Shown here piece by piece: positions 4,199 through 60,652 of a stretch of 64,000 bases of DNA (within the stretch, counting starts at the first letter, position 1; each line of letters begins with the position of its first letter). The translations under genes were made by a program, and so were the position numbers. This DNA is from an uncultured Candidatus Saccharibacteria bacterium (GTDB lineage: Bacteria > Patescibacteriota > Minisyncoccia > Phycocordibacterales > G965230995), in the NCBI GenBank assembly GCA_965230995.1, contig OZ246398.1:144227-208226 (forward strand). Direction: 5' to 3'. Under the pieces are notes generated by a model. The model was given only the letters and a program-made list of their open reading frames with translations. It did not search any database and was not told the DNA's origin.

Positions 4199-5458
4199 TT
4201 ATTTGAATTTGTTTAATCTATTAGAAGCTAAAAATTGTCCTATAAGGAGCTTGTTTGCGCCAGATATTCTTTTATCAGCCAAAGTTTTTCTCAGTATTTT
4301 TTCCAAAGCCTCTCGTGCACGATCTCCCTTTTCTGTGCCAATTACAGCATTTTCTGCTAAATACACTGATAATTCCTCCTGTATCTTTCCAATATTAGTT
4401 GTGCTTGTACCAATCTTTTCTACAACCGCACCAATTATGAGCTTGCTTGCTTTTTCGTTTATTTCATTTTTCAAAGCCTCTGCGTCAACGCCAAAATAAC
4501 CAGAGCCTTCCTCTGCTATGTTTTCTACTATTTTAGTTGCATTTGCCAAATCTTCTGGTTTTTTTGAACCTGCAATTAATTCTGAGACTTTTTCTCTAAT
4601 TGCCTTAGAAACCATATTAGAAACAGCGACCTCACCTGCAAAACCCGCTACAGCTTCCCTTTTAGCCTGTTTATAGATATCTCTCTGAGTTAATCTCTCG
4701 GCTTCGAGTCCTTGTATGCTTCTTATTCCTTCGACTTTCTTTTTTGTCTCTGCAATCTTTGCGTCTAGATCACCACGTTTTAGTCTGACACCCATTTCTT
4801 TTGCCTGAGCTCGAGCTTTTCTCTTTTCACCAAACAAAGTAAGTCTTCCTGCTCCGGTCCAGAAATTGAGGCTCTCTCTTGCTTTTTCTAGTATCTCTGC
4901 TTTCTTTTCGCCATCCTGTTTCTCGGCATCTATATCATCAGATATTCCCAATTCTGCTTTTTTGTCGGCAATCAATTTTTCACGAAGCAACATATCGGCT
5001 TTGTTGGTCGTCATCTTTTGGTATTCTGCAAGCATTTGCAACACTCTCTCTGGATTAGAATAGGCAAGACTAGTTATATATGTGTCTACTGAAGGCGACA
5101 CATCTGTGCTAGTAGGACCTGCTTTTTCTTGCATTTCACCCAAAACAAAAAATTTTACATTTTCTGCTAGCTCTTTTGTTTGTTTGAATAATTCAAAAAA
5201 TCTGTTTGTTTCTCTTATATCTTCAGCATCAAAATTGGTATCTGGGTTTGCTTGCAAAAAATCTGAAAAACCATCTGTATTAATTGCTGTATCGAATGTT
5301 TGTCTCTCTTCGTCTGATATTAATTCCAAAGCATTTCCAGTCTTATCTGGTACCGGCACAGACTCAGCCGGTGGAACTTGGTTTTGAATATGTTCTGGTC
5401 CAGTATCACCTTCATTTGGCACTCCATATGGAAATTCTTTTAGTGGTCCTTCACCCAT
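4199..5458 (-). CDS. hypothetical protein, no TM, predicted helical
   Basis: 419 aa ORF; first gene of operon; no recognisable catalytic motifs. Confidence 0.55.
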   Translation of the reverse strand: MGEGPLKEFPYGVPNEGDTGPEHIQNQVPPAESVPVPDKTGNALELISDEERQTFDTAINTDGFSDFLQANPDTNFDAEDIRETNRFFELFKQTKELAENVKFFVLGEMQEKAGPTSTDVSPSVDTYITSLAYSNPERVLQMLAEYQKMTTNKADMLLREKLIADKKAELGISDDIDAEKQDGEKKAEILEKARESLNFWTGAGRLTLFGEKRKARAQAKEMGVRLKRGDLDAKIAETKKKVEGIRSIQGLEAERLTQRDIYKQAKREAVAGFAGEVAVSNMVSKAIREKVSELIAGSKKPEDLANATKIVENIAEEGSGYFGVDAEALKNEINEKASKLIIGAVVEKIGTSTTNIGKIQEELSVYLAENAVIGTEKGDRAREALEKILRKTLADKRISGANKLLIGQFLASNRLNKFK

Positions 5459-13766: not shown

Positions 13767-14501
13767 TTATTTTCTATATCCGTGAATCTTAATGGTTGTA
13801 TACTGAACCGCCGTGTTAGAGAAATCTTCGGCTATAATACCTGAACAATTTTGTGAACTTACACCTGATCCATCTGTGTTACATTTGACTATCCTAATCT
13901 CCAAGCGTCCATTACTATCGAGAGGTAGCCATGTTGTATCTGACATACCATAATAAGCGTTCCCAACAAATATATTCTTCCAACTGCTCTGGCTAGGCCA
14001 CTTATACTGAATCGCATACCTAGTAGCGCTACCGTCAAAGCTACTTTCTATTAATAGTGCCTTTGCACCAGATGGAACCGAATTCAAACCTGAACCGACT
14101 GTAAACCTTGCAGGATATGTTATTCCATCAGTAGTTTCAATGATAACACTTGGTGTACTAAATAATGTTTCAGTAAAAATAGAATCCTGCCAAGTAGCAT
14201 TCCCTTCTGCATCAGAAGTGAGAACCTTGCCATTACCTGCGTTTGTAGGGATTTTTAATAGTCCATTAAATATTGAACCACCATTTACAAGCAGAGAACC
14301 AAGGGAAAGGCCACCTTCTTTTACTTGGGAAGATGGGCCAACATTAATTGGTGCAAATGTATTTGAATTCGGAGCCTCTGCAATTGGTCCTTGCCATACA
14401 CTATCTTCGTCATATATGTCTTCAGCTTGAAGATAAGAAACTCCAATAACAGAAAGAACGGAAAGTGTGATTATGGATAAATAATGAAGTGTTTTTTTCA
14501 T
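13767..14501 (-). CDS. secreted protein, paralog A of a tandem pair
   Basis: signal peptide MKKTLHYLSIITLSVLSVIGVSYLQA identical to neighbour; shared block GGLSLGSLLVNGGSIFNGLLKIPTNAGxGKVLTSDAEGNATWQ. Confidence 0.6.
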   Translation of the reverse strand: MKKTLHYLSIITLSVLSVIGVSYLQAEDIYDEDSVWQGPIAEAPNSNTFAPINVGPSSQVKEGGLSLGSLLVNGGSIFNGLLKIPTNAGNGKVLTSDAEGNATWQDSIFTETLFSTPSVIIETTDGITYPARFTVGSGLNSVPSGAKALLIESSFDGSATRYAIQYKWPSQSSWKNIFVGNAYYGMSDTTWLPLDSNGRLEIRIVKCNTDGSGVSSQNCSGIIAEDFSNTAVQYTTIKIHGYRK

Positions 14502-14520
14502 ATTGCTAATATTTTTTAAA

Positions 14521-15306
14521 CTACATAGCCGGACAAATTGTCATTGTCCAAACATAATCAAAGTTATCTGCTCTAATAGTCCATTCGTTTTCAGAATTTT
14601 CTGAATAGCTACCTTCGGAATAGTCGTCGTAGACATAAAAATTATTTCCATAATTTACAAAGTATTTTGCAACACCATCTCCATTTATTCCACGTTGTGA
14701 CCCAGTATCGTCTGTCCAATCTTCACTTGTCGCAATACTTTTTAATTGCCTATAGAAATAGTTTGTACTTCCGTACATTGACTGAGTGGTGATTGCCTCA
14801 TATAGATCTGATTTTAATCGCCACACAGTATAACTACATCCTGAGTTAAGATAAGGACCAGAAGTTGAACCTACACAGATATTTCTTCCAGCAGAGTTTA
14901 TAAGACTAACTCTCCAAAAACGCTTTCCACTGTCGTTCATATAGTCTTCTCGTCTATTATTTCGGTTGGTGGAAGCAACAACACATTGGCTCGCCAAGAC
15001 ATCTGAACTTGATGACTCCTGCCAGGTAGCATTTCCTTCTGCATCAGAAGTGAGAACTTTTCCGTCTCCTGCGTTTGTAGGGATTTTTAATAGTCCATTA
15101 AATATTGAACCACCATTTACAAGCAAAGAACCAAGGGAAAGACCACCTTCTTTTACCTGAGAGGCGTCGCTCACATTTATAGGAGCTGGTGTATTTCCAT
15201 CGGGTGGTGTGGCACTTGGACCATCCCAGGCTTGGAGATACGAGACCCCGATGACAGAAAGAACAGATAGTGTGATTATGGATAAATAATGAAGTGTTTT
15301 TTTCAT
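14521..15306 (-). CDS. secreted protein, paralog B of a tandem pair
   Basis: same signal peptide and about 45-aa conserved block as 13767..14501 (nucleotides near-identical), divergent C-terminus. Confidence 0.6.
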   Translation of the reverse strand: MKKTLHYLSIITLSVLSVIGVSYLQAWDGPSATPPDGNTPAPINVSDASQVKEGGLSLGSLLVNGGSIFNGLLKIPTNAGDGKVLTSDAEGNATWQESSSSDVLASQCVVASTNRNNRREDYMNDSGKRFWRVSLINSAGRNICVGSTSGPYLNSGCSYTVWRLKSDLYEAITTQSMYGSTNYFYRQLKSIATSEDWTDDTGSQRGINGDGVAKYFVNYGNNFYVYDDYSEGSYSENSENEWTIRADNFDYVWTMTICPAM

Positions 15307-15307
15307 G

Positions 15308-15577
15308 CTATTTTTGTTCTTTAAGTTGCTCCAATAAATTTATCTGTTCTTCTTTTGATATATTCTCTGGGCTATTTTTCTTAAGTGAATCGAGCATTTT
15401 TTTTCTTTCTTCAACTGATGGGGTGTTCGTGGAGGTAGAAAGTAATTCTTGCAATATTTCTCTGTCGGTTTTTTTCTGCTCTGTGATTTTATTTTTTTCT
15501 GGAAGCAAGAAATAAGAAACGACACCTAGCACAATCAGGAGCAAAACAACAATAATTATTTTTTTAGAATTCAACAT
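15308..15577 (-). CDS. small membrane-anchored protein
   Basis: start taken at MLNSKKIIIVVLLLIVLG; single TM then charged helical tail. Confidence 0.4.
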   Translation of the reverse strand: MLNSKKIIIVVLLLIVLGVVSYFLLPEKNKITEQKKTDREILQELLSTSTNTPSVEERKKMLDSLKKNSPENISKEEQINLLEQLKEQK

Positions 15578-25886: not shown

Positions 25887-25894
25887 TAAAAACA

Positions 25895-25919
25895 AAAAAT
25901 GCCGAAAGGCATTTTTTGT
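25895..25919. terminator. rho-independent terminator
   Basis: aaaaaatgcc gaaa ggcattttttg. Confidence 0.6.
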
Positions 25920-26108
25920 TTTAACGGCTTTATAGAGCCATCAGAAAATATGACACATTTATTTTTTTTGTAAAATACATATCGTTATTTAAAGCCCTAT
26001 TTTGCCCTTGCACCAAAAAAGCGTTGATATATAATGGTATAAGGACGAAAAAGACAGAAGCATATCTATGCGGAAGTCAAAATTATTAAGTAATAGATAA
26101 CTATTCAT

Positions 26109-26381: not shown

Positions 26382-26402
26382 TATTCCAACCACTATTTAA
26401 AA

Positions 26403-26430
26403 CAAAAAAACCGCGTTAGCGGTTTTTTTG
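26403..26430. terminator. bidirectional terminator
   Basis: aaaaaaaccgcg tta gcggtttttttg. Confidence 0.6.
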
Positions 26431-26436
26431 TTTTAG

Positions 26437-26540
26437 TGCGGGTGGGGAGAATCGACCCTCACAGGGTCAGTACCCCGATTGGATTTTTCTGTTCGTTTCA
26501 CTCCAGAAAAATGCTCAATCGGGCTTCGATTCTCCCACAC
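26437..26540. repeat. tRNA-linked repeat element copy 1: duplicated 3' end of tRNA-Gly + 62-nt conserved hairpin + inverted T-arm copy
   Basis: 26437-26455 repeats the last 19 nt of tRNA-Gly(TCC) (antisense on the plus strand); 26468-26529 is 62/62 identical to 28978-29039; 26521-26536 is an inverted near-copy of the tRNA-Gly T-arm. Confidence 0.6.
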
Positions 26541-26580
26541 AAGGTCTCCCAGACCTTGCTCATACCCGTATAGACATAAA

Positions 26581-26612
26581 CAAAAGCCGTCCAAGAAGAG
26601 GACGGCTTTTGT
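26581..26612 (-). terminator. terminator of tRNA-Gly(TCC)
   Basis: aaaagccgtcc aagaaga ggacggcttttgttt. Confidence 0.5.
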
Positions 26613-26620
26613 TTATGTTG

Positions 26621-26691
26621 TGCGGGTGGGGAGAATCGAACTCCCGTTTACACATTGGAAGTGTGTCATTCTACCACTAAACTACACCCGC
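26621..26691 (-). tRNA. tRNA-Gly (anticodon TCC)
   Basis: minus-strand gcgggtgtagtttagtggtagaatgacacacttccaatgtgtaaacgggagttcgattctccccacccgca; cloverleaf with acaca/tgtgt anticodon stem and loop cttccaa. Confidence 0.85.
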
Positions 26692-28930: not shown

Positions 28931-29047
28931 CTAAAAGGAATTTTTGCCTTAGTGCCGGGATTCGAACATTACATGTTCAGTACCCCGATTGGATTTTTCT
29001 GTTCGTTTCACTCCAGAAAAATGCTCAATCGGGCTTCGAATCCCTGA
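28931..29047. repeat. tRNA-linked repeat element copy 2: duplicated 3' end of tRNA-Pro plus flank + 62-nt conserved hairpin + inverted T-arm copy
   Basis: 28931-28967 is a direct imperfect repeat of 29091-29127 (terminator flank plus last 16 nt of tRNA-Pro); 28978-29039 identical to copy 1; 29031-29046 is an inverted near-copy of the tRNA-Pro T-arm. Confidence 0.6.
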
Positions 29048-29105
29048 CAAACAGTATGTTTATACTGTTTGTCCACTCCTCCAAAATTTCCTAAAGGAAT
29101 TTTTG

Positions 29106-29178
29106 TCGGAGTGCCGGGATTCGAACCCGGAGTCGCTCGCTCCCAAAGCGAGAATGTTAGCCGTTACACCACACTCCG
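29106..29178 (-). tRNA. tRNA-Pro (anticodon TGG)
   Basis: minus-strand cggagtgtggtgtaacggctaacattctcgctttgggagcgagcgactccgggttcgaatcccggcactccga; anticodon loop tttggga. Confidence 0.8.
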
Positions 29179-29225: not shown

Positions 29226-29600
29226 CTAGGAATTAATAACGGGAATCATTTCTACTTTTGCTTTTTTCTGAACTGATGAGTATTTTACTGTCACAAGAAA
29301 TACTCCCCACTCCCCTTTTATGTTTCTTTGAGAAATATAAATATCTATTATCCTATAGAACTTTCGTAATTTATCACTATGCAAATTTTCTTCCGGTCTG
29401 AAACCAAAATCAGAATCAATATTTGTCCGAGAAACACTTTTTACCTCACAAAAATAGATTTTGCCATTTTTTTCAGCAACGATGTCTATTTCACCTAAAA
29501 AATGTCTAAAATTTCTTTCGATAATCTTAAAGCTATTCTTCTCTAAATATCTTCCAGCAATTTCCTCCCCTATTTTTCCAATTTCATTATGTCTGGCCAT
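29226..29600 (-). CDS. YraN-family (UPF0102) endonuclease
   Basis: 124 aa; GEIDIVA ... FCEVK motif typical of YraN. Confidence 0.75.
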   Translation of the reverse strand: MARHNEIGKIGEEIAGRYLEKNSFKIIERNFRHFLGEIDIVAEKNGKIYFCEVKSVSRTNIDSDFGFRPEENLHSDKLRKFYRIIDIYISQRNIKGEWGVFLVTVKYSSVQKKAKVEMIPVINS

Positions 29601-30140: not shown

Positions 30141-30305
30141 GAAAGGAAATTGCAAGTCGGAGCTCGCCGCCTAAAACCACAAAAGAGCCCGGGGGAATAT
30201 CGGTGCGAACAATGTTTTGAATTGAGGGGGAAAAAAAATTTTTAATCCAATACGGAAACTCAGAAAAGACCCTAAAATATCGGCTTTTTTTGTTTGCCGC
30301 TTACA

Positions 30306-31742: not shown

Positions 31743-33230
31743 ATGAAAAAAGCCTCAATTGACCCAAAAACCTTTAATATTCCGGAGGTTGTTTCGCGTG
31801 TAACATCTGTTTTACAAGATAATGGCTATGAAGCCTATATTGTCGGCGGTTGTGTTCGTGACCTTTTCCTTGGAAAAACGCCTAAAGATTGGGATATAAC
31901 AACAAATGCCACTCCTGAACAGATTATTTCCCTATATCCAGAAACATTTTACGAAAATTCTTTTGGAACGGTTGGTGTCGTGACAGAATCAGAAGAGCCT
32001 ACACTAAAGGTTATCGAAATAACCACATATCGAATAGAATCGGGCTACAGCGACAAAAGAAGACCTGACAATGTATCTTTTAGTGTAAACATACACGACG
32101 ACCTAATGAGACGCGATTTTACGATAAACGCAATGGCTTTTGATCCGAAGTCCGGGACTCTCATTGATTCCTTTGGCGGAATTGAAGATTTACACAAAAA
32201 ACAAATAAAAACAGTTGGAAATCCCGAGGATAGGTTCAACGAAGATGGTCTACGGATATTGCGTGCGATACGACTTAGCTCTGAACTTGGTTTTGATATC
32301 GAAGAAAAAACAGAAAAAGCCATAAAGGACAATTCTTCCCTACTCAATCATATTTCTGCAGAAAGAATCCGCGATGAATTCATAAAAGTCATTTCTTCAC
32401 AGAACGCTCTGCAAGGTATTGTAAACAGTCACAGATTAGGTGTTCTGTCCTTTATAATCCCAGAATTAGAAGAAGGAATTGGTGTGGAACAAACTGCTAC
32501 ACACGCTTATGATGTATGGACACACCTATTAAAAAGCCTAGAACATTCAATAAACAAAGAATATCCGTTACACGTGAAACTGGCTGCCTTGTTACACGAT
32601 ATAGGAAAGCCACGTTCAAGGAGATTTTCAACAGGTAAAGAAAAATATACCTTCTACGGTCACGAAGTTTCAGGGGCTAAAATAGCCAAAAGCATACTAG
32701 AAAGGCTTAAATTTCCAAAAGAAACGGTAGAAAAAGTAACAAAATTGGTTAGATGGCATATGTTTTTCTCGGATACCGAACAAATTACATTGTCTGCAGT
32801 AAGAAGAATGATAGTAAATGTAGGAAGTGATCTAGTCTGGGATTTAATGAACGTTAGAATATGTGACAGAATTGGAACAGGAAGACCAAAGGAAAACCCT
32901 TACAGATTAAGAAAATACAAAGCAATGGTTGAAGAAGCTCTACGAGACCCTATTTCTGTCCAGATGTTAAATATCGATGGTAAAAGGATTATGGATGTTA
33001 CACGTGAAAACCCTGGACCAAAGATTGGCTATATTTTAAATGCCCTACTTGAAGAGGTTTTGGACAATCCAACCCTAAATACAGCCGAATATCTAGAAAA
33101 AAGAACACTGGAGCTGTCAAAATTAGATGAAAAAGAGCTTAGAAAGATTTCAGATAAAGGAAAAGAAAAGAAAGACGAAGAAGAAAAGAAAGAACTAAAA
33201 AAGATTCACGCGAAACATAAAGTAGATTAG
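31743..33230 (+). CDS. cca: CCA-adding tRNA nucleotidyltransferase with C-terminal HD domain
   Basis: GGCVRDLFLGKTPKDWDITT Pol-beta NTase motif; HD domain LLHDIGK. Confidence 0.85.
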   Translation: MKKASIDPKTFNIPEVVSRVTSVLQDNGYEAYIVGGCVRDLFLGKTPKDWDITTNATPEQIISLYPETFYENSFGTVGVVTESEEPTLKVIEITTYRIESGYSDKRRPDNVSFSVNIHDDLMRRDFTINAMAFDPKSGTLIDSFGGIEDLHKKQIKTVGNPEDRFNEDGLRILRAIRLSSELGFDIEEKTEKAIKDNSSLLNHISAERIRDEFIKVISSQNALQGIVNSHRLGVLSFIIPELEEGIGVEQTATHAYDVWTHLLKSLEHSINKEYPLHVKLAALLHDIGKPRSRRFSTGKEKYTFYGHEVSGAKIAKSILERLKFPKETVEKVTKLVRWHMFFSDTEQITLSAVRRMIVNVGSDLVWDLMNVRICDRIGTGRPKENPYRLRKYKAMVEEALRDPISVQMLNIDGKRIMDVTRENPGPKIGYILNALLEEVLDNPTLNTAEYLEKRTLELSKLDEKELRKISDKGKEKKDEEEKKELKKIHAKHKVD

Positions 33231-41557: not shown

Positions 41558-43096
41558 ATGTCATTTGCAAAAGTTCACAGTGCACAAAATTACTTGCTTA
41601 GATCACATATAGTCGACATTGAAGTAGACCTCTCTCGAGGTCTATATTCATTTTCTATTGTCGGCCTACCAGATAAATCCGTAGAAGAATCTCGCGACAG
41701 AATTTCATCTGCAATAAAAAACTCTGGCTTTGAATCTCCAAAACAAAAAAATGAAAAGGTTGTTATTTCTCTTGCGCCGGCTCATATAAAAAAAGAAGGG
41801 GCCCATTTTGATCTTGCGGTCGCAATTGCATATTTAATTGCGTCGGGAGAACTTGTTTTAAGAGAGCAAACAAAATCTGTTTTTATCGGCGAACTTTCTC
41901 TCGACGGTACTGTTCGTCCTGTTTCAGGAATACTGCCTCTCGTTTGTGAAGCAAAAAAATCAGGTTTTGATTGTGTTTTTGTACCAAAAGAAAATGCAAA
42001 CGAAGCGGGTATAGCAAGAGGAATAAAAATATATCCGGTAGGGAGCCTACGAGAATTATTTGAGCACCTTTCACAAAATGGAAAATTAAAAATAGTAGAA
42101 TCTCCAGAAACAGAATTACCGGACCAAGAACAAAACAATGCAATAGACCTTTCTTTTATAAAAGGGCAGGAGACTGCAAAGAGAGCTTTAATAATTGCAT
42201 GCGCAGGAGGTCATAATTTGAATTTTTACGGACCGCCAGGTACAGGAAAAAGTATGCTTGCAAAAGCGTGTTGTGGTATTTTGCCAAAATTATCTTATGA
42301 AGAAGTCCTAGAAGTGACAGGCATACATTCAGCTTCGGGTGTTCTCGAAAGTAATTTCATAACAACGCCACCCGTTAGATCTCCGCATCATACTTCGTCT
42401 TATGTTTCTTTGGTTGGCGGTGGAGCAAATCTAAAACCCGGTGAAATAACTTTGGCACACAGAGGAATACTTTTCCTCGATGAGTTTCCGGAATTCGACA
42501 GGAAAGTTCTCGAGGCCTTGCGTGAACCGCTCGAAGAAAAAACTGTCAGAATATCCAGGGCAAAGGGAAGTGTAATCTTTCCCGCGGATATAATGCTCAT
42601 ATCTGCAATGAACCCATGCCAATGTGGATATTTTGGATCAGAGCACAGACAATGTACTTGTTTACCGCATATGAGAGAAAAATATCTCAAAAAAATATCT
42701 GGACCGATTATGGATAGAATAGATATATGGACATCAGTTGAAAATATTCCGCACGAAAAGTTAATGTCTAAATCAACAGAAGGAATAACAAGTGCCGAAG
42801 CAAGAGAGATGATAAAGTCTGCTAGAAAAAAACAAAAAGAAAGATTTGAATCTCTAAATATTAAAATAGACAAAAACAGTAGGATACCATCGAATGAAAT
42901 TGAAAGGGCAGTAAGATACACAAAAGGAGCGTTGGATACATTAAATATAGCAAGTGGAAAATTGGGACTATCGCCTCGTTCATACCACAGAATGTTACGG
43001 CTGGCTCGAACGATTGCTGATTTAGATGAAAAGACAGAAGTCGAGACCCCTCATATCTTGGAAGCTCTACAATATAGACCAAAACTTGAAGTATAA
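41558..43096 (+). CDS. comM: YifB/ComM family Mg-chelatase-like AAA+ ATPase
   Basis: 512 aa; Lon-like N-domain, Walker A GPPGTGKS, Mg-chelatase ChlI blocks. Confidence 0.85.
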   Translation: MSFAKVHSAQNYLLRSHIVDIEVDLSRGLYSFSIVGLPDKSVEESRDRISSAIKNSGFESPKQKNEKVVISLAPAHIKKEGAHFDLAVAIAYLIASGELVLREQTKSVFIGELSLDGTVRPVSGILPLVCEAKKSGFDCVFVPKENANEAGIARGIKIYPVGSLRELFEHLSQNGKLKIVESPETELPDQEQNNAIDLSFIKGQETAKRALIIACAGGHNLNFYGPPGTGKSMLAKACCGILPKLSYEEVLEVTGIHSASGVLESNFITTPPVRSPHHTSSYVSLVGGGANLKPGEITLAHRGILFLDEFPEFDRKVLEALREPLEEKTVRISRAKGSVIFPADIMLISAMNPCQCGYFGSEHRQCTCLPHMREKYLKKISGPIMDRIDIWTSVENIPHEKLMSKSTEGITSAEAREMIKSARKKQKERFESLNIKIDKNSRIPSNEIERAVRYTKGALDTLNIASGKLGLSPRSYHRMLRLARTIADLDEKTEVETPHILEALQYRPKLEV

Positions 43097-43097
43097 A

Positions 43098-43125
43098 CAA
43101 AAAATGCCTTTCGGCATTTTTTGTT
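43098..43125. terminator. bidirectional terminator
   Basis: aaaaaatgcc tttc ggcattttttg. Confidence 0.6.
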
Positions 43126-43144
43126 TGGGAGCAAAAAACGACTC

Positions 43145-54274: not shown

Positions 54275-56080
54275 ATGTCTTTATTAGATTTTTTCAAAAA
54301 AAATAAAACGACAACAGAACCCGTTTTGCCACAGGATATTTATGATGCGTCTGTTTTGGAATTGCAGGATGTCATTGCCCCAAGCGCACTCAAAATAAAT
54401 TCAAAAGAGACAATGATTTCTGGGATGATGGTTAGATCATATTTTGTCGTTTCATATCCTAGATTTGTTGGGGAAGACTGGCTTTCTCCTATTGTAAACC
54501 TAGACAAAGTATTTGATATTTCAATTTTTGTACATCCAATAGATACTTCTGTTATTCTAAAAAAATTCCAGAAAAAAGTAGCTGAAGTAGAAAGCCAAAT
54601 AAATGAACGCCAAGAAAAAGGACTCGTTAGAGATCCAAAACTAGAAATTGCATATCAAGACCTCGAAAATCTTAGAGATCAATTACAGCAAGCATCAGAA
54701 AAAATGTTTGATGTTGGTTTGTACATTTCTTTGTACGGAAAAGACGAAGCAGAAATAGATAAAGTAGAATTGGAAATAAAATCAATTTTGGAATCAAAAC
54801 TTATCTATGTTAAACCTGCTCTATTCCAACAAAAAGAGGGTTTTCTTTCTATGATTCCAACTGCTGACGATGCCTTGATGGTGCATACAAAAATGAATTC
54901 CTCTCCACTCTCGAGCACCTTTCCTTTTGTATCGTTTGACCTCACGTCTGATAGGGGAATATTGTATGGACTAAACAGACATAATTCAGGTCTTATACTT
55001 TTTGATAGATACTCGCTTGAAAACTACAATTCTATTACTTTTGCAAAATCTGGTTCAGGAAAATCTTATGCAACAAAACTAGAAATCCTTCGAACTTTGA
55101 TGTTTGATACCGAGGTTATAGTAGTTGACCCAGAAAAAGAATATCAGTACCTCGCCGAAGCAGTGGGGGGCAGATTCTTTAATATTTCTCTTAACTCTGA
55201 ACACCACATAAATCCATTTGAATTACCAACTCCAGGAGAAGACGAATCGGCAGAAAGCGTTCTTCGTTCAAACATCATAAACCTTGTTGGTTTGTTTAGA
55301 ATTATGCTTGGTGGTCTTTCTCCAGAAGAAGACGCAATAATCGACCAAGCCATAATGCAAACTTATGCATTAAAAGACATTACACCTGATTCAGATTTCA
55401 GAAATATCGAACCTCCACTTATGTCAGACTTTGAATTGGTGCTCTCTGGTATGCAAGGCGGAGAATCTCTCGCACAGAGACTCACAAAATATACAAAGGG
55501 TACTTGGGCTGGGTTCATAAACCAACCATCAAATATTGATATGAACAAAAAGCTTGTTGTATTTTCACTTCGAGATATGGAGGACGAGCTAAAGCCTATT
55601 GCAATGTATATTATTATGCATTACATCTGGAACACAGTCAGAAAGGATATCAAAAAGAGACTTCTTGTTATTGATGAAGCGTGGTGGATGATGAAATCCG
55701 AAGACACCGCATCATTTTTGATGGGACTTGTTAAAAGAGGGCGAAAATATTATCTTGGTGTATCTACAATCACACAAGACGTCGAAGACTTTTTGCGATC
55801 ACCATATGGAAAACCTATTATCACAAACTCTTCAATACAAGTCTTACTCAAACAATCTCCGTCAGCTGCCGACGTTCTACAAAATGTTTTTAATCTAACA
55901 GATGAAGAAAAATACACATTGCTTGAATCTGGAGTAGGAGAGGGGATTTTCTTTGCTGGAATAAAACACGCAGCTATAAAAGTCTATGCTTCTTATACAG
56001 AAGACCAGATTATTACATCTGACCCATCACAGTTACTTGCTATAAAAAAAGCAAAAGAAGAATTAAGAAATAGCCTTTAA
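54275..56080 (+). CDS. VirB4/TraE-type type IV secretion ATPase (C-terminal ATPase portion)
   Basis: Walker A FAKSGSGKSY; Walker B RLLVIDEAWWMM; motif GRKYYLGVSTITQDVEDF. Confidence 0.8.
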   Translation: MSLLDFFKKNKTTTEPVLPQDIYDASVLELQDVIAPSALKINSKETMISGMMVRSYFVVSYPRFVGEDWLSPIVNLDKVFDISIFVHPIDTSVILKKFQKKVAEVESQINERQEKGLVRDPKLEIAYQDLENLRDQLQQASEKMFDVGLYISLYGKDEAEIDKVELEIKSILESKLIYVKPALFQQKEGFLSMIPTADDALMVHTKMNSSPLSSTFPFVSFDLTSDRGILYGLNRHNSGLILFDRYSLENYNSITFAKSGSGKSYATKLEILRTLMFDTEVIVVDPEKEYQYLAEAVGGRFFNISLNSEHHINPFELPTPGEDESAESVLRSNIINLVGLFRIMLGGLSPEEDAIIDQAIMQTYALKDITPDSDFRNIEPPLMSDFELVLSGMQGGESLAQRLTKYTKGTWAGFINQPSNIDMNKKLVVFSLRDMEDELKPIAMYIIMHYIWNTVRKDIKKRLLVIDEAWWMMKSEDTASFLMGLVKRGRKYYLGVSTITQDVEDFLRSPYGKPIITNSSIQVLLKQSPSAADVLQNVFNLTDEEKYTLLESGVGEGIFFAGIKHAAIKVYASYTEDQIITSDPSQLLAIKKAKEELRNSL

Positions 56081-56082
56081 TT

Positions 56083-56694
56083 ATGGCTGAAAATACAGAC
56101 ATCGAGGTAATACCAAAAAGGTCTGAGCAAGAACCAGGCATAGAAAGAGTTCCTAAAAGACCGCCGAGAATAAAGACTTGGGTTTTTTGTGCAATGCTCA
56201 TTGTCGCAATCATACTTGATTTAGTTAGCCTCATTCCAGCAGCAAATGACATTACGCTCGTAATTGCCGGTATTCTTTTTGGATTATGGTGGTGGAAACT
56301 CGGACTTGGTTTCCTTAATTTAAAGAAAATAATCACATACTCTCTTTCTGTAATAGTCGAAGCTGTCCCTATTTTGGCCGTTTTGCCCGCTGTTACACTG
56401 GCTGTTGTCGTAACCTTTGTTATTTCTAGGGGAGAAGATAAATTGGGCATTAGCATTATGCCTGGAAAATTTGGCATAGACGCAGGAAAAAATCCAAAAA
56501 GAATTGGCTTAAAAGAGAGATTCAACTCACTTAAAAAAGAAACTAAATGGACCGAGGACGAGAAAAAAATCTTTAAAAGAAAAGATGATACAGCAAGAAA
56601 AGATAAGAACCCACTAGCCTTTGTACCAGGGGAGTATTCAAAAGAAACTGGTTCGCTCGAGGACACAGACAAAGAATACGATATTGACGAATAG
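56083..56694 (+). CDS. polytopic membrane protein (T4SS-like operon)
   Basis: 203 aa, 3-4 TM helices then K/E-rich tail; preferred over the antisense ORF 56040..56705 because it continues the plus-strand operon with 3-nt spacing. Confidence 0.5.
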   Translation: MAENTDIEVIPKRSEQEPGIERVPKRPPRIKTWVFCAMLIVAIILDLVSLIPAANDITLVIAGILFGLWWWKLGLGFLNLKKIITYSLSVIVEAVPILAVLPAVTLAVVVTFVISRGEDKLGISIMPGKFGIDAGKNPKRIGLKERFNSLKKETKWTEDEKKIFKRKDDTARKDKNPLAFVPGEYSKETGSLEDTDKEYDIDE

Positions 56695-56747
56695 TTTTTA
56701 TTCACACCCCGCTTTAATAATTAGTACTAAAAGGCTATAATGTAGTT

Positions 56748-57734
56748 ATGCAAAGAATCTTTTTCTTTTTATCCTTGTTCTTGTTATTTTTTGTTTTTGC
56801 ATCTAATACAAAAGCTCAGAGCAATGCTGTCACTCCTTTTGATATTAAAAACGAAACTAACATTTATGTTTCTCCACAAAACCCTCAGAAAGGCCAAGAT
56901 TTTGAAGTATCCATTGAAAGCTATTCGCTCAACTTGGACGCCTCGACAATATCTTTTTATGCAAATGATGTTTTAATCCAAAAAGAACTTGGAAATAAAA
57001 AGGCTATAATACCAAACAAAAGCACAGTAACTGTTGTGAGGATTTTGATTGAAACATCGCAAGGAAATTTTATAGAAAAAGAAAAAATAGTTTATTCAAA
57101 TTCACTTTCATTAGTCTGGAATGCACAGACAACTGTACCGCCTTTTTACAAAGGCAAAGCTCTTCTTTCAGACGGATCAGAAGTCATAATATCAGCAATT
57201 ACAGAAATCACAGACGAAAACAACAAACAAATTCCACAGGAGCTTTTGATTTTTACATGGAAAGTCAACGGAAAAACAAAATTGGATTTATCGGGAATAG
57301 GAAAGAGTGAAATCGTGATAAGTGATGTTGTGGTAGATGATAAATACAAAATATTTGTAACTGCTGAATCTCGAGATCAAAAATATACTGCCACAAATTA
57401 TCTTGAAATTTCTTTTAGCAACCCAAAGGTTTTGCTTTACGAAACAGACCCTCTCTTTGGACCCTCAAGCTATGCTCTGTCTAATTCTAAAACTACAAAA
57501 AACGAATTGGGAGTAGTTGCTGTCCCTTTCTTTTTCAAAAAAGGAGCGCAAGATAATGTTGTATCTTTTACATGGAGAGTCAACGGCGAAACAGCAAAGA
57601 CAAAGTCGAACCGAATATCGCTACGAAACGAAAAGGGAGGGGAGGGCTATATTGAAATATCAATCCTAGCCGAGAGTCTTCTCGATAAATTTCAAAGATT
57701 CAGTAAAAAAATAACGCTCGAAGCAATAAAATGA
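56748..57734 (+). CDS. secreted protein (T4SS-like operon)
   Basis: signal peptide MQRIFFFLSLFLLFFVFASNTKA; beta-rich. Confidence 0.5.
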   Translation: MQRIFFFLSLFLLFFVFASNTKAQSNAVTPFDIKNETNIYVSPQNPQKGQDFEVSIESYSLNLDASTISFYANDVLIQKELGNKKAIIPNKSTVTVVRILIETSQGNFIEKEKIVYSNSLSLVWNAQTTVPPFYKGKALLSDGSEVIISAITEITDENNKQIPQELLIFTWKVNGKTKLDLSGIGKSEIVISDVVVDDKYKIFVTAESRDQKYTATNYLEISFSNPKVLLYETDPLFGPSSYALSNSKTTKNELGVVAVPFFFKKGAQDNVVSFTWRVNGETAKTKSNRISLRNEKGGEGYIEISILAESLLDKFQRFSKKITLEAIK

Positions 57735-58984
57735 TAAGAAAGAATTTTAAAATAATCTTGTTGTCTATCATAATAGTTTTATGTTTTGCTTTTGTAAAAA
57801 TTACTTTTGCAGCAGACGATAGCGGACTACTCACCTATACACCAATGGAAGTGATAGACGGCCTTACACCGGAAAAAATGCCAGTTAATCTGTCAGATTA
57901 CCTCAATCGGCTTTATGTATTTCTAATTGCATTTTCTTCTGTTATCGCCGTTGTAATGATAACAATTGGTGGTTTTACTTATATTCTATCTGCAAGTTCC
58001 GGTGGAAAAGAAGACGGCAAGGGGATGATAAAAAATGCAATTTTTGGTCTTTTGTTAATGTTTCTTAGCTATCTAATCGTAAATACAGTTAACCCAAGCG
58101 CTCTGGATTTTAATATTTTCAAAAATGCAACTCCTATAAAACCGGTAAGTTTGGAAATTAATACTTCAGGAGAAGGTCAAACCGCTCTAGAAGGGCTCGA
58201 CCCGACCAAAAAAGGACAGTGGGCACTTAGAGTTGTCTCACCAGAAAATTCAGAAATTAGATATTATGATACACAAGTTAAATGTTTATCTGAAAAAGAA
58301 TCGCTTTCTGAAGCAACAACTGCAAAATACAAGATGCCGGCAACAAGTCAATGCACAGCAAAGACTATGAATGTAGATAAAGTATATTATTTTACTTATG
58401 ACTATAAGGATTGGCCGGATAGAAATGTCGTCGAGACGACCAGCTGGTCTGCAACTGGAAAAACAAATTCTATTGCTACAACAGAGATTTCAGAGACAAC
58501 AATGGAAGCCTGTAAACAAAAAAAAGAAGAGGTTATCGCAAAAGCATTAGACAGAAAACCTTATCGTCCAACAACTGCCTGTACATCTCTCCATAATTCT
58601 GAAAATACAAATCAATTTAATTTTAGTTTTATATATCCTTACGGAGAAACGGAAGCAAGAGAATTTGCTACAAAATCATACTCAACAAAAGAATGTGTAC
58701 AAAAATATAAGTTTATCTCAACATACTATGAACCTTATAAGAACATATCGGAATGTAAGGAAAAAAAACCTACCAATTCGACTCAGAAAGCAACCTACTA
58801 TTGCCAAGAGGGGATAGAAATGTATTTGGACGGAAATAATGTGGGGGAACAATCTAAAGGAACAAATAAAACTTCTGGTAATGATTGTTTCAGGACAAAA
58901 TCAGAATGTGAACAAAACTTCAACGAAAAAAAGGTTCAATTAATGCCAAGATATAATTTATCATCATGCATACTGGTAAAATAA
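57731..58984 (+). CDS. VirB2/TrbC-like pilin domain fused to a 270-aa Cys-rich extracellular domain
   Basis: signal peptide then two hydrophobic helices LYVFLIAFSSVIAVVMITIGGFTYILSA and GMIKNAIFGLLLMFLSYLIVNTVNP (T4SS pilin topology), then a C-terminal region with at least 12 Cys. Confidence 0.5.
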   Translation: MIRKNFKIILLSIIIVLCFAFVKITFAADDSGLLTYTPMEVIDGLTPEKMPVNLSDYLNRLYVFLIAFSSVIAVVMITIGGFTYILSASSGGKEDGKGMIKNAIFGLLLMFLSYLIVNTVNPSALDFNIFKNATPIKPVSLEINTSGEGQTALEGLDPTKKGQWALRVVSPENSEIRYYDTQVKCLSEKESLSEATTAKYKMPATSQCTAKTMNVDKVYYFTYDYKDWPDRNVVETTSWSATGKTNSIATTEISETTMEACKQKKEEVIAKALDRKPYRPTTACTSLHNSENTNQFNFSFIYPYGETEAREFATKSYSTKECVQKYKFISTYYEPYKNISECKEKKPTNSTQKATYYCQEGIEMYLDGNNVGEQSKGTNKTSGNDCFRTKSECEQNFNEKKVQLMPRYNLSSCILVK

Positions 58985-60165: not shown

Positions 60166-60170
60166 TAAAA

Positions 60171-60198
60171 CAAAAAAACCGCTTTGGCGGTTTTTTTG
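60171..60198. terminator. bidirectional terminator
   Basis: aaaaaaaccgc tttg gcggtttttttg. Confidence 0.6.
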
Positions 60199-60199
60199 T

Positions 60200-60652
60200 T
60201 TATATCTGAGAATATTTTATCACCACTCTTCTTTCTTTACCCTCACCAATAGACGATGTTTCGATTCTAATATCGTCACCGAACATATTGTGTATGAGTA
60301 GTCTCTCGTAAGAATTCATCGGCCTTAGCTCTATTGTTTTTTTGGTTTTTACAACTTCTTCGACTGTCTTTCTGACTTCTGCTATAAGCTGATTCATCTC
60401 GTCTTGTTTGTAACCATTTATATCTATATTGAATTTTGCTTCGCTCTTTGTCTTTTGTTTGATTATGAGGCTGAGCAAATGGTGATATGCGTCTATATGT
60501 TCTCCTCTTTTTCCAATAGCCCTTCCAGAATCGTTCGTTCTCACGTTATAAACGATAATATCGCCCTGTTTTACAATTTCTACGTCTATTACATGGACGT
60601 CTAATTTTGCAAAAAAATCTTTTATTAAGGCTATAGTTTCTTCTTGTGTCAT
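60200..60652 (-). CDS. jag: Jag/KhpB RNA-binding protein (KH + R3H domains)
   Basis: 150 aa; GRAIGKRGEHIDAYHHL KH block; R3H-like C-terminus; downstream of yidC as usual. Confidence 0.8.
   Translation of the reverse strand: MTQEETIALIKDFFAKLDVHVIDVEIVKQGDIIVYNVRTNDSGRAIGKRGEHIDAYHHLLSLIIKQKTKSEAKFNIDINGYKQDEMNQLIAEVRKTVEEVVKTKKTIELRPMNSYERLLIHNMFGDDIRIETSSIGEGKERRVVIKYSQI

Follow-up and report, generated by a model that had tools for sequence, protein, structure and literature searches.

The genomes of Patescibacteria are tiny and hold few recognised mobile elements. Genomic islands and cis-mobilisable elements (CIMEs) that integrate into tRNA genes leave a direct repeat of the 3' part of the tRNA that runs from a loop to the end of the tRNA, keep an intact tRNA gene beside a displaced partial copy, accrete in tandem and vary in occupancy. 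In the attC sites of integrons and the attP hairpin of the CTX phage, inverted target-like arms and a spacer fold into a double-stranded mimic of the target, structure matters more than sequence, and short units stand in arrays. Miniature palindromic repeats, including miniature inverted-repeat transposable elements (MITEs), the REP/BIME/REPIN, Correia and Rickettsia palindromic repeats and mitochondrial double-hairpin elements, are small non-coding units that form hairpins and lie scattered between genes; assemblies break at them, and they promote rearrangement. Here we describe an element that resembles each of these systems in the traits just listed. It was found in a 64,000-nt stretch of an uncultured Candidatus Saccharibacteria bacterium (assembly GCA_965230995.1, contig OZ246398.1, positions 144,227 to 208,226 of the forward strand; hereafter the window), where one copy (copy 2) stands beside the gene for tRNA-Pro(TGG) as a non-coding unit of roughly 170 bases without an open reading frame (ORF), and another (copy 1) beside that for tRNA-Gly(TCC). 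The element belongs to a family that is widespread in Patescibacteria and seated on essential genes. Its anatomy and distribution are solid, and its mechanism is graded separately below.

Anatomy of the element beside tRNA-Pro(TGG)

Alignment of the two window copies with 76 related loci (designated by L numbers below) gave a common order of parts, which in the direction of the tRNA reads: 'a' (the last third of the tRNA), a trailer that often carries a terminator-like hairpin, the inverted acceptor strand a'acc, hairpin P0, the inverted T arm a'T, AG, hairpin P2, a GUACUG junction, hairpin P3, and pseudo-a, a direct copy of tRNA nt 55–73 that at times includes a few trailer bases. The P0 block consists of AG, a hairpin and CGU and lies exactly between the complements of nt 66 and nt 65; the core portion is about 75 nt long, and the whole unit about 140–190 nt across the family. 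The two window copies show this same arrangement (Table 1), as stated in a preliminary description of the locus, which had named their alignment as a check; they are 87% identical over 98 nt.

All features listed in that description are present in copy 2, although P3 (28965–28977) and the inverted acceptor with trailer (about 29074–29091) had been missed and several extents had to be redrawn. The direct repeat, placed at 28931–28967 and 29091–29127 with 16 nt of tRNA, in fact spans 28934–28967 and 29093–29126 (31/34 identical; in the direction of the tRNA the former lies 159 nt downstream of the latter) and holds the last 22 nt of tRNA-Pro and 12 nt of trailer. The identical hairpin of 62 nt shared with copy 1 is a 63-nt stretch (26467–26529 and 28977–29039) that forms merely the core of a larger unit, and the perfect hairpin following the inverted arm has a stem of 12 bp, not 10. 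The inverted T arm of tRNA-Pro was confirmed at 29035–29046.

The weak hairpin in the trailer of tRNA-Pro is the turn-around of a long inverted repeat between 'a' and its inverted copy, of which the portion that mirrors the acceptor 3' strand and trailer is degenerate (best ungapped match of a'acc 10/12 in the family arm analysis). P0 splits the inverted copy where the complements of nt 65 and nt 66 meet, with a'acc on one side of it and a'T on the other, and this position is identical across the family; the P0 sequences of the two window copies are unrelated. a'T and pseudo-a form the 5' and 3' strands of a further helix, P1, and P2 is made up of a CCCGAUUG..CAAUCGGG base, a G-C pair between two bulges and a 9-bp upper stem. 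The differences between the P3 stems of copies 1 and 2 are compensatory, and all five pairs have changed on both sides within the family. In copy 1, the T-stem 3' strand, acceptor 3' strand and discriminator of pseudo-a are identical to those of tRNA-Gly at 13/13 positions.

The three mismatches of the direct repeat in copy 2 are clustered in the acceptor strand, where CCGA has become AAGG (28947–28953), a change that makes pseudo-a complementary to a CCTT 12 nt downstream and that looks like a templated quasipalindrome mutation. The element region folds far better than shuffled sequences (z about −6.7 as RNA, on either strand), and DNA folding gave z-scores of −16.7 and −10.4, the latter belonging to the tRNA-Pro element region. 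None of the features described for copy 2 is due to chance.

Table 1. Positions in the window of the parts of both element copies and of their partner tRNA genes.
Feature	Position	Strand	Evidence
Copy 2
tRNA-Pro(TGG), intact, no encoded CCA	29105/29106–29178	minus	ARAGORN; Rfam tRNA, 61.4 bits; sequence
'a', tRNA-Pro nt 54–73, mirrored by both arms	29106–29125	minus	ARAGORN, Rfam, sequence
Trailer of tRNA-Pro with weak hairpin AAAAATTCC-TTTA-GGAAATTTT	29082–29104	minus	sequence; DNA fold, tRNA-sense strand
a'acc, degenerate inverted acceptor 3' strand; GGAGTG pairs with tRNA CACTCC	29074–29081	minus	sequence, fold
P0, perfect 12-bp stem, 4-nt loop	29046–29073 (arms 29046–29057, 29062–29073)	minus	repeat search
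a'T, inverted tRNA-Pro nt 54–65 (T loop and T-stem 3' strand), 11/12	29035–29046	minus	repeat search, complement match
P2, long conserved hairpin, identical in copy 1	28984–29033	minus	copy alignment, folding, covariation
GUACUG, conserved single-stranded P2–P3 junction	28978–28983	minus	(nearly) invariant in 64 sequences
P3, 5-bp hairpin with GUA loop, AACAU-GUA-AUGUU	28965–28977	minus	folding, covariation
Pseudo-a, direct copy of tRNA-Pro nt 55–73 with 12–13 nt of trailer	28934–28965	minus	repeat search, 31/34
Copy 1
tRNA-Gly(TCC), partner of copy 1	26620–26691	minus	ARAGORN, Rfam
Trailer and terminator-like palindrome (19-bp arms) separating tRNA from element	26574–26618	minus	sequence
P0 hairpin, CAAGGUCU-GGG-AGACCUUG	26540–26558	minus	sequence, folding
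a'T, inverted tRNA-Gly nt 54–65, 12/12	26525–26536	minus	complement match
Core	26455–26523	minus	alignment, folding, covariance model (93.7 bits)
P2 of core	26474–26523	minus	
Junction of core	26468–26473	minus	
P3 of core (ACCCU-GUG-AGGGU)	26455–26467	minus	
Pseudo-a, direct tRNA-Gly(TCC) 3' end	26436–26455	minus	repeat search, arm analysis

The arms mirror the neighbouring tRNA

The arms were compared with cognate and non-cognate tRNAs at 54 loci with an adjacent tRNA. Pseudo-a was identical to the cognate tRNA at 12 or more of 13 positions in 46% of the loci, a'acc matched at 11 or more of 12 positions in 39%, and neither level was reached with any non-cognate tRNA (0% for both). The T-stem part of a'T matched at 5/5 positions in 69% of cognate as against 2.8% of non-cognate comparisons, and 37 of the 54 loci had an a'T that was complementary to the cognate tRNA over all 12 nt. 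Wherever the T stem contained a non-Watson-Crick pair, a'T was the complement of the tRNA 3' strand (9/9 loci), and a'T also reflects the variable loop positions 59–60. For these two reasons a'T is a genuine inverted copy and no remnant of a 5' half, and a tRNA 5' half carrying an insert in its T loop was rejected as its source. The view of the preliminary description that the arms derive from whichever tRNA is adjacent is thus borne out.

In alternative pairings, a'T joins either pseudo-a, giving P1 and a three-way junction with P2 and P3, or the real tRNA end, giving in the DNA fold a hairpin of ~40 bp from which P0 branches off. The repeat stops close to nt 73 and carries no consistent CCA, and an RNA intermediate recognisable by its CCA was therefore not borne out.

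A family linked to tRNA 3' ends in Patescibacteria

To define the family, the core was searched as the pattern TACCCCGATTG-N(30–46)-CAATCGGGCTTCGA in a genome collection and in viral contigs. The pattern matched nothing in the viral contigs and 87 stretches of the genome collection, all labelled as metagenome-assembled genomes (MAGs) of Patescibacteria and coming from Parcubacteria/Paceibacterota, Taylorbacteria, Nomurabacteria, Lloydbacteria and others. A covariance model (R1) built on 64 sequences recovered 114 copies in 644 kb of retrieved loci, counting matches of at least 29 bits as members. Seventy of the 114 copies lie within 120 nt downstream of the end of a same-strand tRNA and 88 within 450 nt; no copy (0/114) has an opposite-strand tRNA within 120 nt. 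For the remaining 26 copies, no tRNA was detected within 450 nt; some of these stand at the end of a locus or contig, and six of the 26 were examined. Between them, the tRNAs next to the copies represent 17 amino-acid specificities. On the window, the model found exactly two copies (95.8 and 93.7 bits); reverse-strand echoes scored about 17 bits, and nothing else exceeded 12.2 bits (E 0.22). Copy number per genome appears to be low, with two copies in the 64-kb window, beside two of its four tRNAs, and one to few pattern matches per MAG.

The pattern passed over variant cores in which the P2 base covaries, and these were recovered by the model or by eye (L051 at tRNA-Pro, L008 at tRNA-Lys, and L079). 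Moreover, an unrelated "type-2" core (TCGAA-AGACGGAGCGCG...GTGACC) fills the same slot between an inverted and a direct T arm (L058:1740–2110, minus strand; L030, L022, L019); the inverted arm of the L058 type-2 element is continuous, without P0, and one type-2 copy appears to be inserted into the left arm of a type-1 element. A recurrent insert of ~14 nt, AAGYGTACTCRCRG, a tiny hairpin with GTAC, was observed at the T-loop position of pseudo-a (L011:~640–665, L022, L073:~5040–5065); it may be the stump of another core type.

No relevant family was found in Rfam 15 (including hammerhead, twister, pistol, hatchet, Y RNA and tmRNA), either at gathering score or at E up to 10, so a known RNA family was rejected, and the literature searched for such a tRNA-linked repeat family gave no description of one; the family is apparently undescribed. 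A hammerhead was in addition rejected by eye, the CUGANGA...GAAA core being absent (no GA after CUGA, no GAAA). The element is no tRNA or tRNA pseudogene, as ARAGORN and Rfam detect only the four true tRNAs of the window and no match to the element at E up to 10. The tRNA introns reported for Patescibacteria are of group I and located at position 35/36 (PMC13011429); such a self-splicing intron (>200 nt, in the anticodon loop) was rejected because the element lies outside an intact tRNA, has a core of ~75 nt and matches no intron in Rfam. A shared restriction site was also discarded: TCGA occurs at both junctions of the type-1 core, but the type-2 core and P3 variants lack it.

A conserved core at more than 100 loci, in many genomes and at 17 kinds of tRNA, bears directly on whether replication errors alone could have made these structures. 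If the template were switched both at the terminator hairpin and at the TTCGAA palindrome of the T loop, a direct-inverted-direct triplication of the tRNA 3' end would result, and the observed order a/a'/a with hairpins at both turn-arounds is as predicted; the inverted arm is an exact Watson-Crick copy, and the CCGA to AAGG cluster, complementary to a nearby CCTT, looks templated. Template switching does not account for the core or for the recurrent P0 module, and the hairpin between a and a' is often missing from the flank of pseudo-a (e.g. L063, L012). As a sole cause it is largely refuted by the conserved core and hardly credible, although it may contribute to making or maintaining the arms.

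Pairing is preserved almost without G·U intermediates

In the covariation analysis, 93.4% of cells were paired. Two-sided changes were found in 222 cells as compared to 57.6 in shuffles (0/500), and controls in which the pairing was slid collapsed. One-sided changes of the G·U type accounted for only about 10 of 1792 cells; G·U counts in P2 were 15 and 22 on the two strands, with no bias in P2 or P3. The sense strand of P2 is 1.4 kcal/mol more stable, probably owing to its loop sequences. Perfect palindromes of 25–33 bp that include the tRNA end occur at many loci, and many copies, being preceded by a terminator, have no space for their own promoter. The near absence of G·U pairs without strand bias, the long palindromes and the copies behind terminators favour upkeep at the DNA level, and inverted repeats kept by templated copying fit the pairing pattern better than an old structured RNA.

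The same data can be set against the proposal that the element acts as a functional RNA, expressed as a 3' extension of the tRNA transcript or by read-through. It would be a three-way-junction scaffold with a bipartite antisense guide, in which a'acc and a'T, split by P0, target the last 20 nt of their own tRNA and the sense copy masks the guide; it might control tRNA folding, processing or decay, or direct a protein to either the tRNA or its gene. In line with such a role, the element is always downstream of a tRNA on the same strand, some copies lie within tRNA operons with no intervening terminator (e.g. L023, between tRNA-Lys and tRNA-Leu), P2 and P3 covary strongly, the unpaired AG and GUACUG junctions are conserved, P0 falls exactly on the nt 65/66 boundary, and P2, whose sense strand folds slightly better, is specific to the genome, as co-evolution with a trans factor would predict. 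An intact pseudo-a and a perfect a'acc are, furthermore, anticorrelated (Spearman −0.58, p = 1e-5; Fisher p = 4e-4; the loci are phylogenetically non-independent and the p-values indicative only), perfect a'acc going with long spacers that bear a hairpin or terminator and intact pseudo-a with short ones; a possible reading, which would suit an RNA, is that a transcribed anti-acceptor is selected against. Besides the paucity of G·U pairs, the lack of strand bias and the strong terminators that leave no promoter room, it speaks against an RNA that only some tRNAs per genome carry the element and that occupancy varies between genomes, that decayed, tandem and tRNA-less copies are common, and that neither an Rfam match nor an associated protein gene is known. 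We consider an RNA function unlikely.

Within genomes, the hairpins differ in their likeness. In the distal part of P2, copies from one genome resemble each other more (0.825) than do copies from different genomes (0.668), as compared to 0.66 and 0.71 for P3. In the window copies, P2 is perfectly alike and P0 and P3 are different; in two L008 copies, P0 is alike except for one compensatory change and P2 and P3 differ. This pattern would result either from short-patch conversion that exchanges modules or from co-evolution of P2 with a genome-specific partner.

Occupancy varies, and a native tRNA end is displaced in one genome pair

Several tRNA genes that carry the element in one genome are without it in another, as the preliminary description had anticipated in calling for empty sites. 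The tRNA-Pro site is empty in L026, where the next gene follows directly, and in L030; L051 carries a variant of the element there. Within the cluster Cys-Leu(TAA)-Lys(CTT)-Leu(TAG), the Leu(TAA) site of L023 is empty, with no more than 30 nt behind the tRNA, and an element follows Lys; L008 has elements after both Leu(TAA) and Lys plus a decayed one, and L034 has three. Exact tandem units were found in L065 and L056, nested and mixed arrays in L058 and L073, and decayed or nested copies in L008 and L058. At L025, the left arms match the adjacent tRNA-Arg and pseudo-a comes from another tRNA, which points to recombination through the core. Between two elements with tRNA-Asn arms, L062 (5085–6024) holds a TspO/MBR-like ORF of 134 aa, which may be cargo or a host gene that was there originally and became enclosed in an array.

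The tRNA-Ser(TGA) site is empty in L152, in which the intact tRNA is followed by AAGTCGAGCTAG..., and the same flank follows pseudo-a in L074. Pseudo-a and flank of L074 match the tRNA-Ser(TGA) 3' end and flank of L152 at 98/108 positions (flank alone 78/84), and in L074 pseudo-a is preceded by the element together with 3.9 kb or more of other DNA that includes an AIPR gene. As the native flank follows it, pseudo-a in this one genome pair is a displaced native tRNA 3' end, and the DNA ahead of it indicates that inserts can be long, with the structured module at the far end. Displacement of the native end explains the direct repeat equally well as the suggestion that the element copies its target upon insertion; of that suggestion the tRNA-derived arms stand, and copying at insertion is a conjecture. 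The inverted arm could be borne by the element or renewed later by hairpin-templated correction.

Long inserts also raise the alternative that the copies are leftovers of larger tRNA-targeting prophages or islands, the module being an att-proximal arm and the miniature forms arising by internal deletion, as cis-mobilisable attL-attR remnants. Copies without a tRNA adjoin prophage or island genes: a ParB-methylase gene lies on the tRNA-proximal side in L073 and L055, followed in L073 by a small terminase gene, and AIPR is found in L074, where the foreign DNA is tRNA-proximal of the module and pseudo-a bears the native flank; direct repeats that extend from the T loop to the end of the tRNA are a classic mark of tRNA integration. 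Against such an origin, 70 of the 114 copies are complete short units right after the tRNA, their regular architecture includes a hairpin or terminator of their own and no random deletion end points, at least two unrelated cores occupy the same slot, and the core is absent from the viral contigs searched; accretion at a shared att site would equally put islands beside older mini-elements. On balance, we regard such leftovers as a doubtful source of the family.

Proposed mechanism

We favour, with a probability of roughly 45%, a non-autonomous hairpin DNA element that integrates at the T loop/3' end of tRNA genes and whose arms are held complementary by templated copying. A DNA unit would enter the gene in the manner of tRNA-targeting islands, probably in the T loop rather than just after nt 73, such that the tRNA gene is left with a full 3' end and its native one is pushed downstream, along with the adjoining flank, as pseudo-a. 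The insert may consist of ~140 nt without cargo, or of several kb with the structured module distal, and the repeats of 'a' would permit tandem duplication, deletion and accretion. On the tRNA-sense strand, 'a' and a' are predicted to fold into a long hairpin, presumably as a single-stranded intermediate, and hairpin-templated (template-switch) copying would keep or re-make the inverted arm as an exact Watson-Crick complement of the adjacent tRNA. The P2 hairpins of one genome would be homogenised, and a host or phage recombinase could perhaps act in trans.

A number of observations weigh against this proposal. It does not account for the acquisition of arms for a new tRNA; the fixed orientation, the conserved single-stranded junctions and the covariation would also suit an RNA; and the position of P0 exactly at the boundary of acceptor and T stem hints that tRNA architecture itself matters. 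Because P0 and P3 differ, the copies in one genome are not fresh duplicates of one master. Three patterns searched against 2.9 million viral contigs detected no core, and no free circular or viral copy was found; ten matches to a 16-mer all lacked the rest of the element, and a viral origin was rejected on these grounds. A same-species empty site, sought in metagenomes by means of the deaminase gene neighbouring the element, was not found (best identity 62%, no synteny). Lastly, no recombinase or transposase could be linked to the element: the window encodes a single Xer-type tyrosine recombinase, 7 kb away, and no transposase, and a large serine recombinase encoded in L074 (4170–5030) was rejected as the acting enzyme, as it integrates ~70 nt past tRNA-Ser and not in the T loop.

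This serine recombinase belongs to a highly conserved and, in these bacteria, very common family of roughly 440-aa proteins (5981 matches); in L149 and L152 its gene is part of a separate element inserted ~70 nt downstream of tRNA-Ser, with no core nearby. Many database entries of the family are without the N-terminal catalytic domain, and full-length genes were seen in prophage-like or island DNA 1–3 kb downstream of tRNA-Ser(TGA) (L149, L151, L152), in L151 next to a methylase, terminase genes, a type I restriction system and Thoeris genes. Among the window proteins, no integron integrase scored above cut-off and no HUH gene was found in those scanned. No conserved neighbouring gene was seen in the contexts examined.

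A bolder version of the favoured DNA element, in which the unit programmes its own integration, appears quite improbable to us. The P0/P2/P3 scaffold would hold both strands of the last third of the tRNA gene, a folded DNA or RNA strand would find and enter the gene, and the arms would then be rewritten from the neighbour by templated copying, retargeting the module to any tRNA with no dedicated protein gene in cis.

If the favoured DNA element is real, a very short DNA persists by borrowing the T arm and acceptor end of a tRNA, the best-conserved sequence at hand, as landing site and structural arm, and the family marks integration hot spots that gather prophages and defence islands. If the reading as RNA or guide holds, it would represent a new kind of tRNA-directed regulator or targeting system. 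In practical terms, the elements break assemblies and can mislead the annotation of tRNAs and islands. The only public contig with the identical neighbouring deaminase (L001; Logan SRR14271374, 2505 nt) stops 89 nt upstream of that gene, within the core, which is an assembly break at the repeat; a same-species search with the HU protein found no record. The covariance model is ready for use in charting genome rearrangement in these uncultured bacteria.

Other features of the window

The gene content of the window is that of an ordinary chromosome (glycolysis, type IV pilus, NusA, ClpP, RNase Y, CCA-adding enzyme, PNPase, UvrD and DnaA). The gene for the CCA-adding enzyme (31743–33230) lies 1.6 kb from the tRNA cluster, whose genes are without encoded CCA, and a gene of the endonuclease-like YraN family (29226–29600) is directly upstream of tRNA-Pro. 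Downstream of tRNA-Arg(TCG), the stretch GGAGCTCGCCGCC (30141–30175) loosely resembles the inverted acceptor 3' end of that tRNA; no core follows it, and the covariance model has no match there. Near-identical bidirectional terminator hairpins (AAACAAAAAA-GC stem-TTTTTTGTTT) recur at 25890–25921 and 43095–43126 and at 26400–26435 and 60166–60201, and one distant pair of terminator hairpins is 100% complementary over 32 nt. Two adjacent ORFs (13767–14501 and 14521–15306), both without a Pfam match, are 82–83% identical in their 3' and 5' regions (14182–14519 against 15014–15324), which looks like a tandem gene duplication. Genes resembling those of a type IV secretion system (T4SS; TraG/VirB4-like ATPase, T4SS pilin) are found at 54275–58984, a few kb from dnaA.

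Comparison with known systems

With the tRNA-integrating islands and CIMEs, the element has in common the flanking direct repeat (31/34), the displaced repeat with its native flank (L074 compared to L152) and the empty sites. No cognate integrase, in cis or in trans, accompanies the unit of only ~150 nt, which is without an ORF. Unlike these islands, the element has an inverted att copy and a conserved three-way-junction core, and the same core is found at 17 specificities with matching arms.

Compared to integron attC and CTX attP sites, the element has arms derived from tRNA and no integron integrase, and recombination of a folded strand would here be by analogy. It is no attC site, since its T loop reads GTTCGAA and lacks the GTTRRRY box. 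Unlike the miniature palindromic repeats, it appears to be low in copy number and is strictly linked and oriented to tRNA 3' ends, its outer arms mirror the neighbouring gene, and no related transposase is known for it. Classification as a MITE failed because the inverted repeat is specific for the tRNA rather than fixed, the duplication is at least 19 nt long and no transposase was found in the window. The REP/BIME-RAYT type is marked by a palindrome of 20–40 nt with a GTAG head in hundreds of copies, as opposed to the different architecture of the element with two copies per 64 kb and one to few per MAG; RAYT was not searched genome-wide. With IS200/IS605-type repeats (PATE) the element shares hairpins, and an HUH gene was, as stated above, missing from the scanned window proteins.

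Products of quasipalindrome correction or inverted triplication are similar in having exact Watson-Crick inverted copies near hairpins, changes that come in pairs with no G·U intermediate, and clusters of templated substitutions; template switching, however, is a mutational process and no element, and accounts for the arms but not for the conserved core. The bipartite guide RNAs (H/ACA, IS110 bridge RNAs, TIGR-Tas dual-spacer RNAs) likewise have guide segments split by a hairpin and match both strands of one target in one structured molecule. They differ in that their guides comprise few nucleotides as compared to arms of 12–30 nt in the element, which is known here as DNA sequence and shows no sign of their defining boxes, domains or partner protein. 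The element is thus best filed among the small integrating or palindromic repeats, within which it is unusual in that the last third of the adjacent tRNA flanks a conserved three-hairpin scaffold twice, once in direct and once in inverted orientation.

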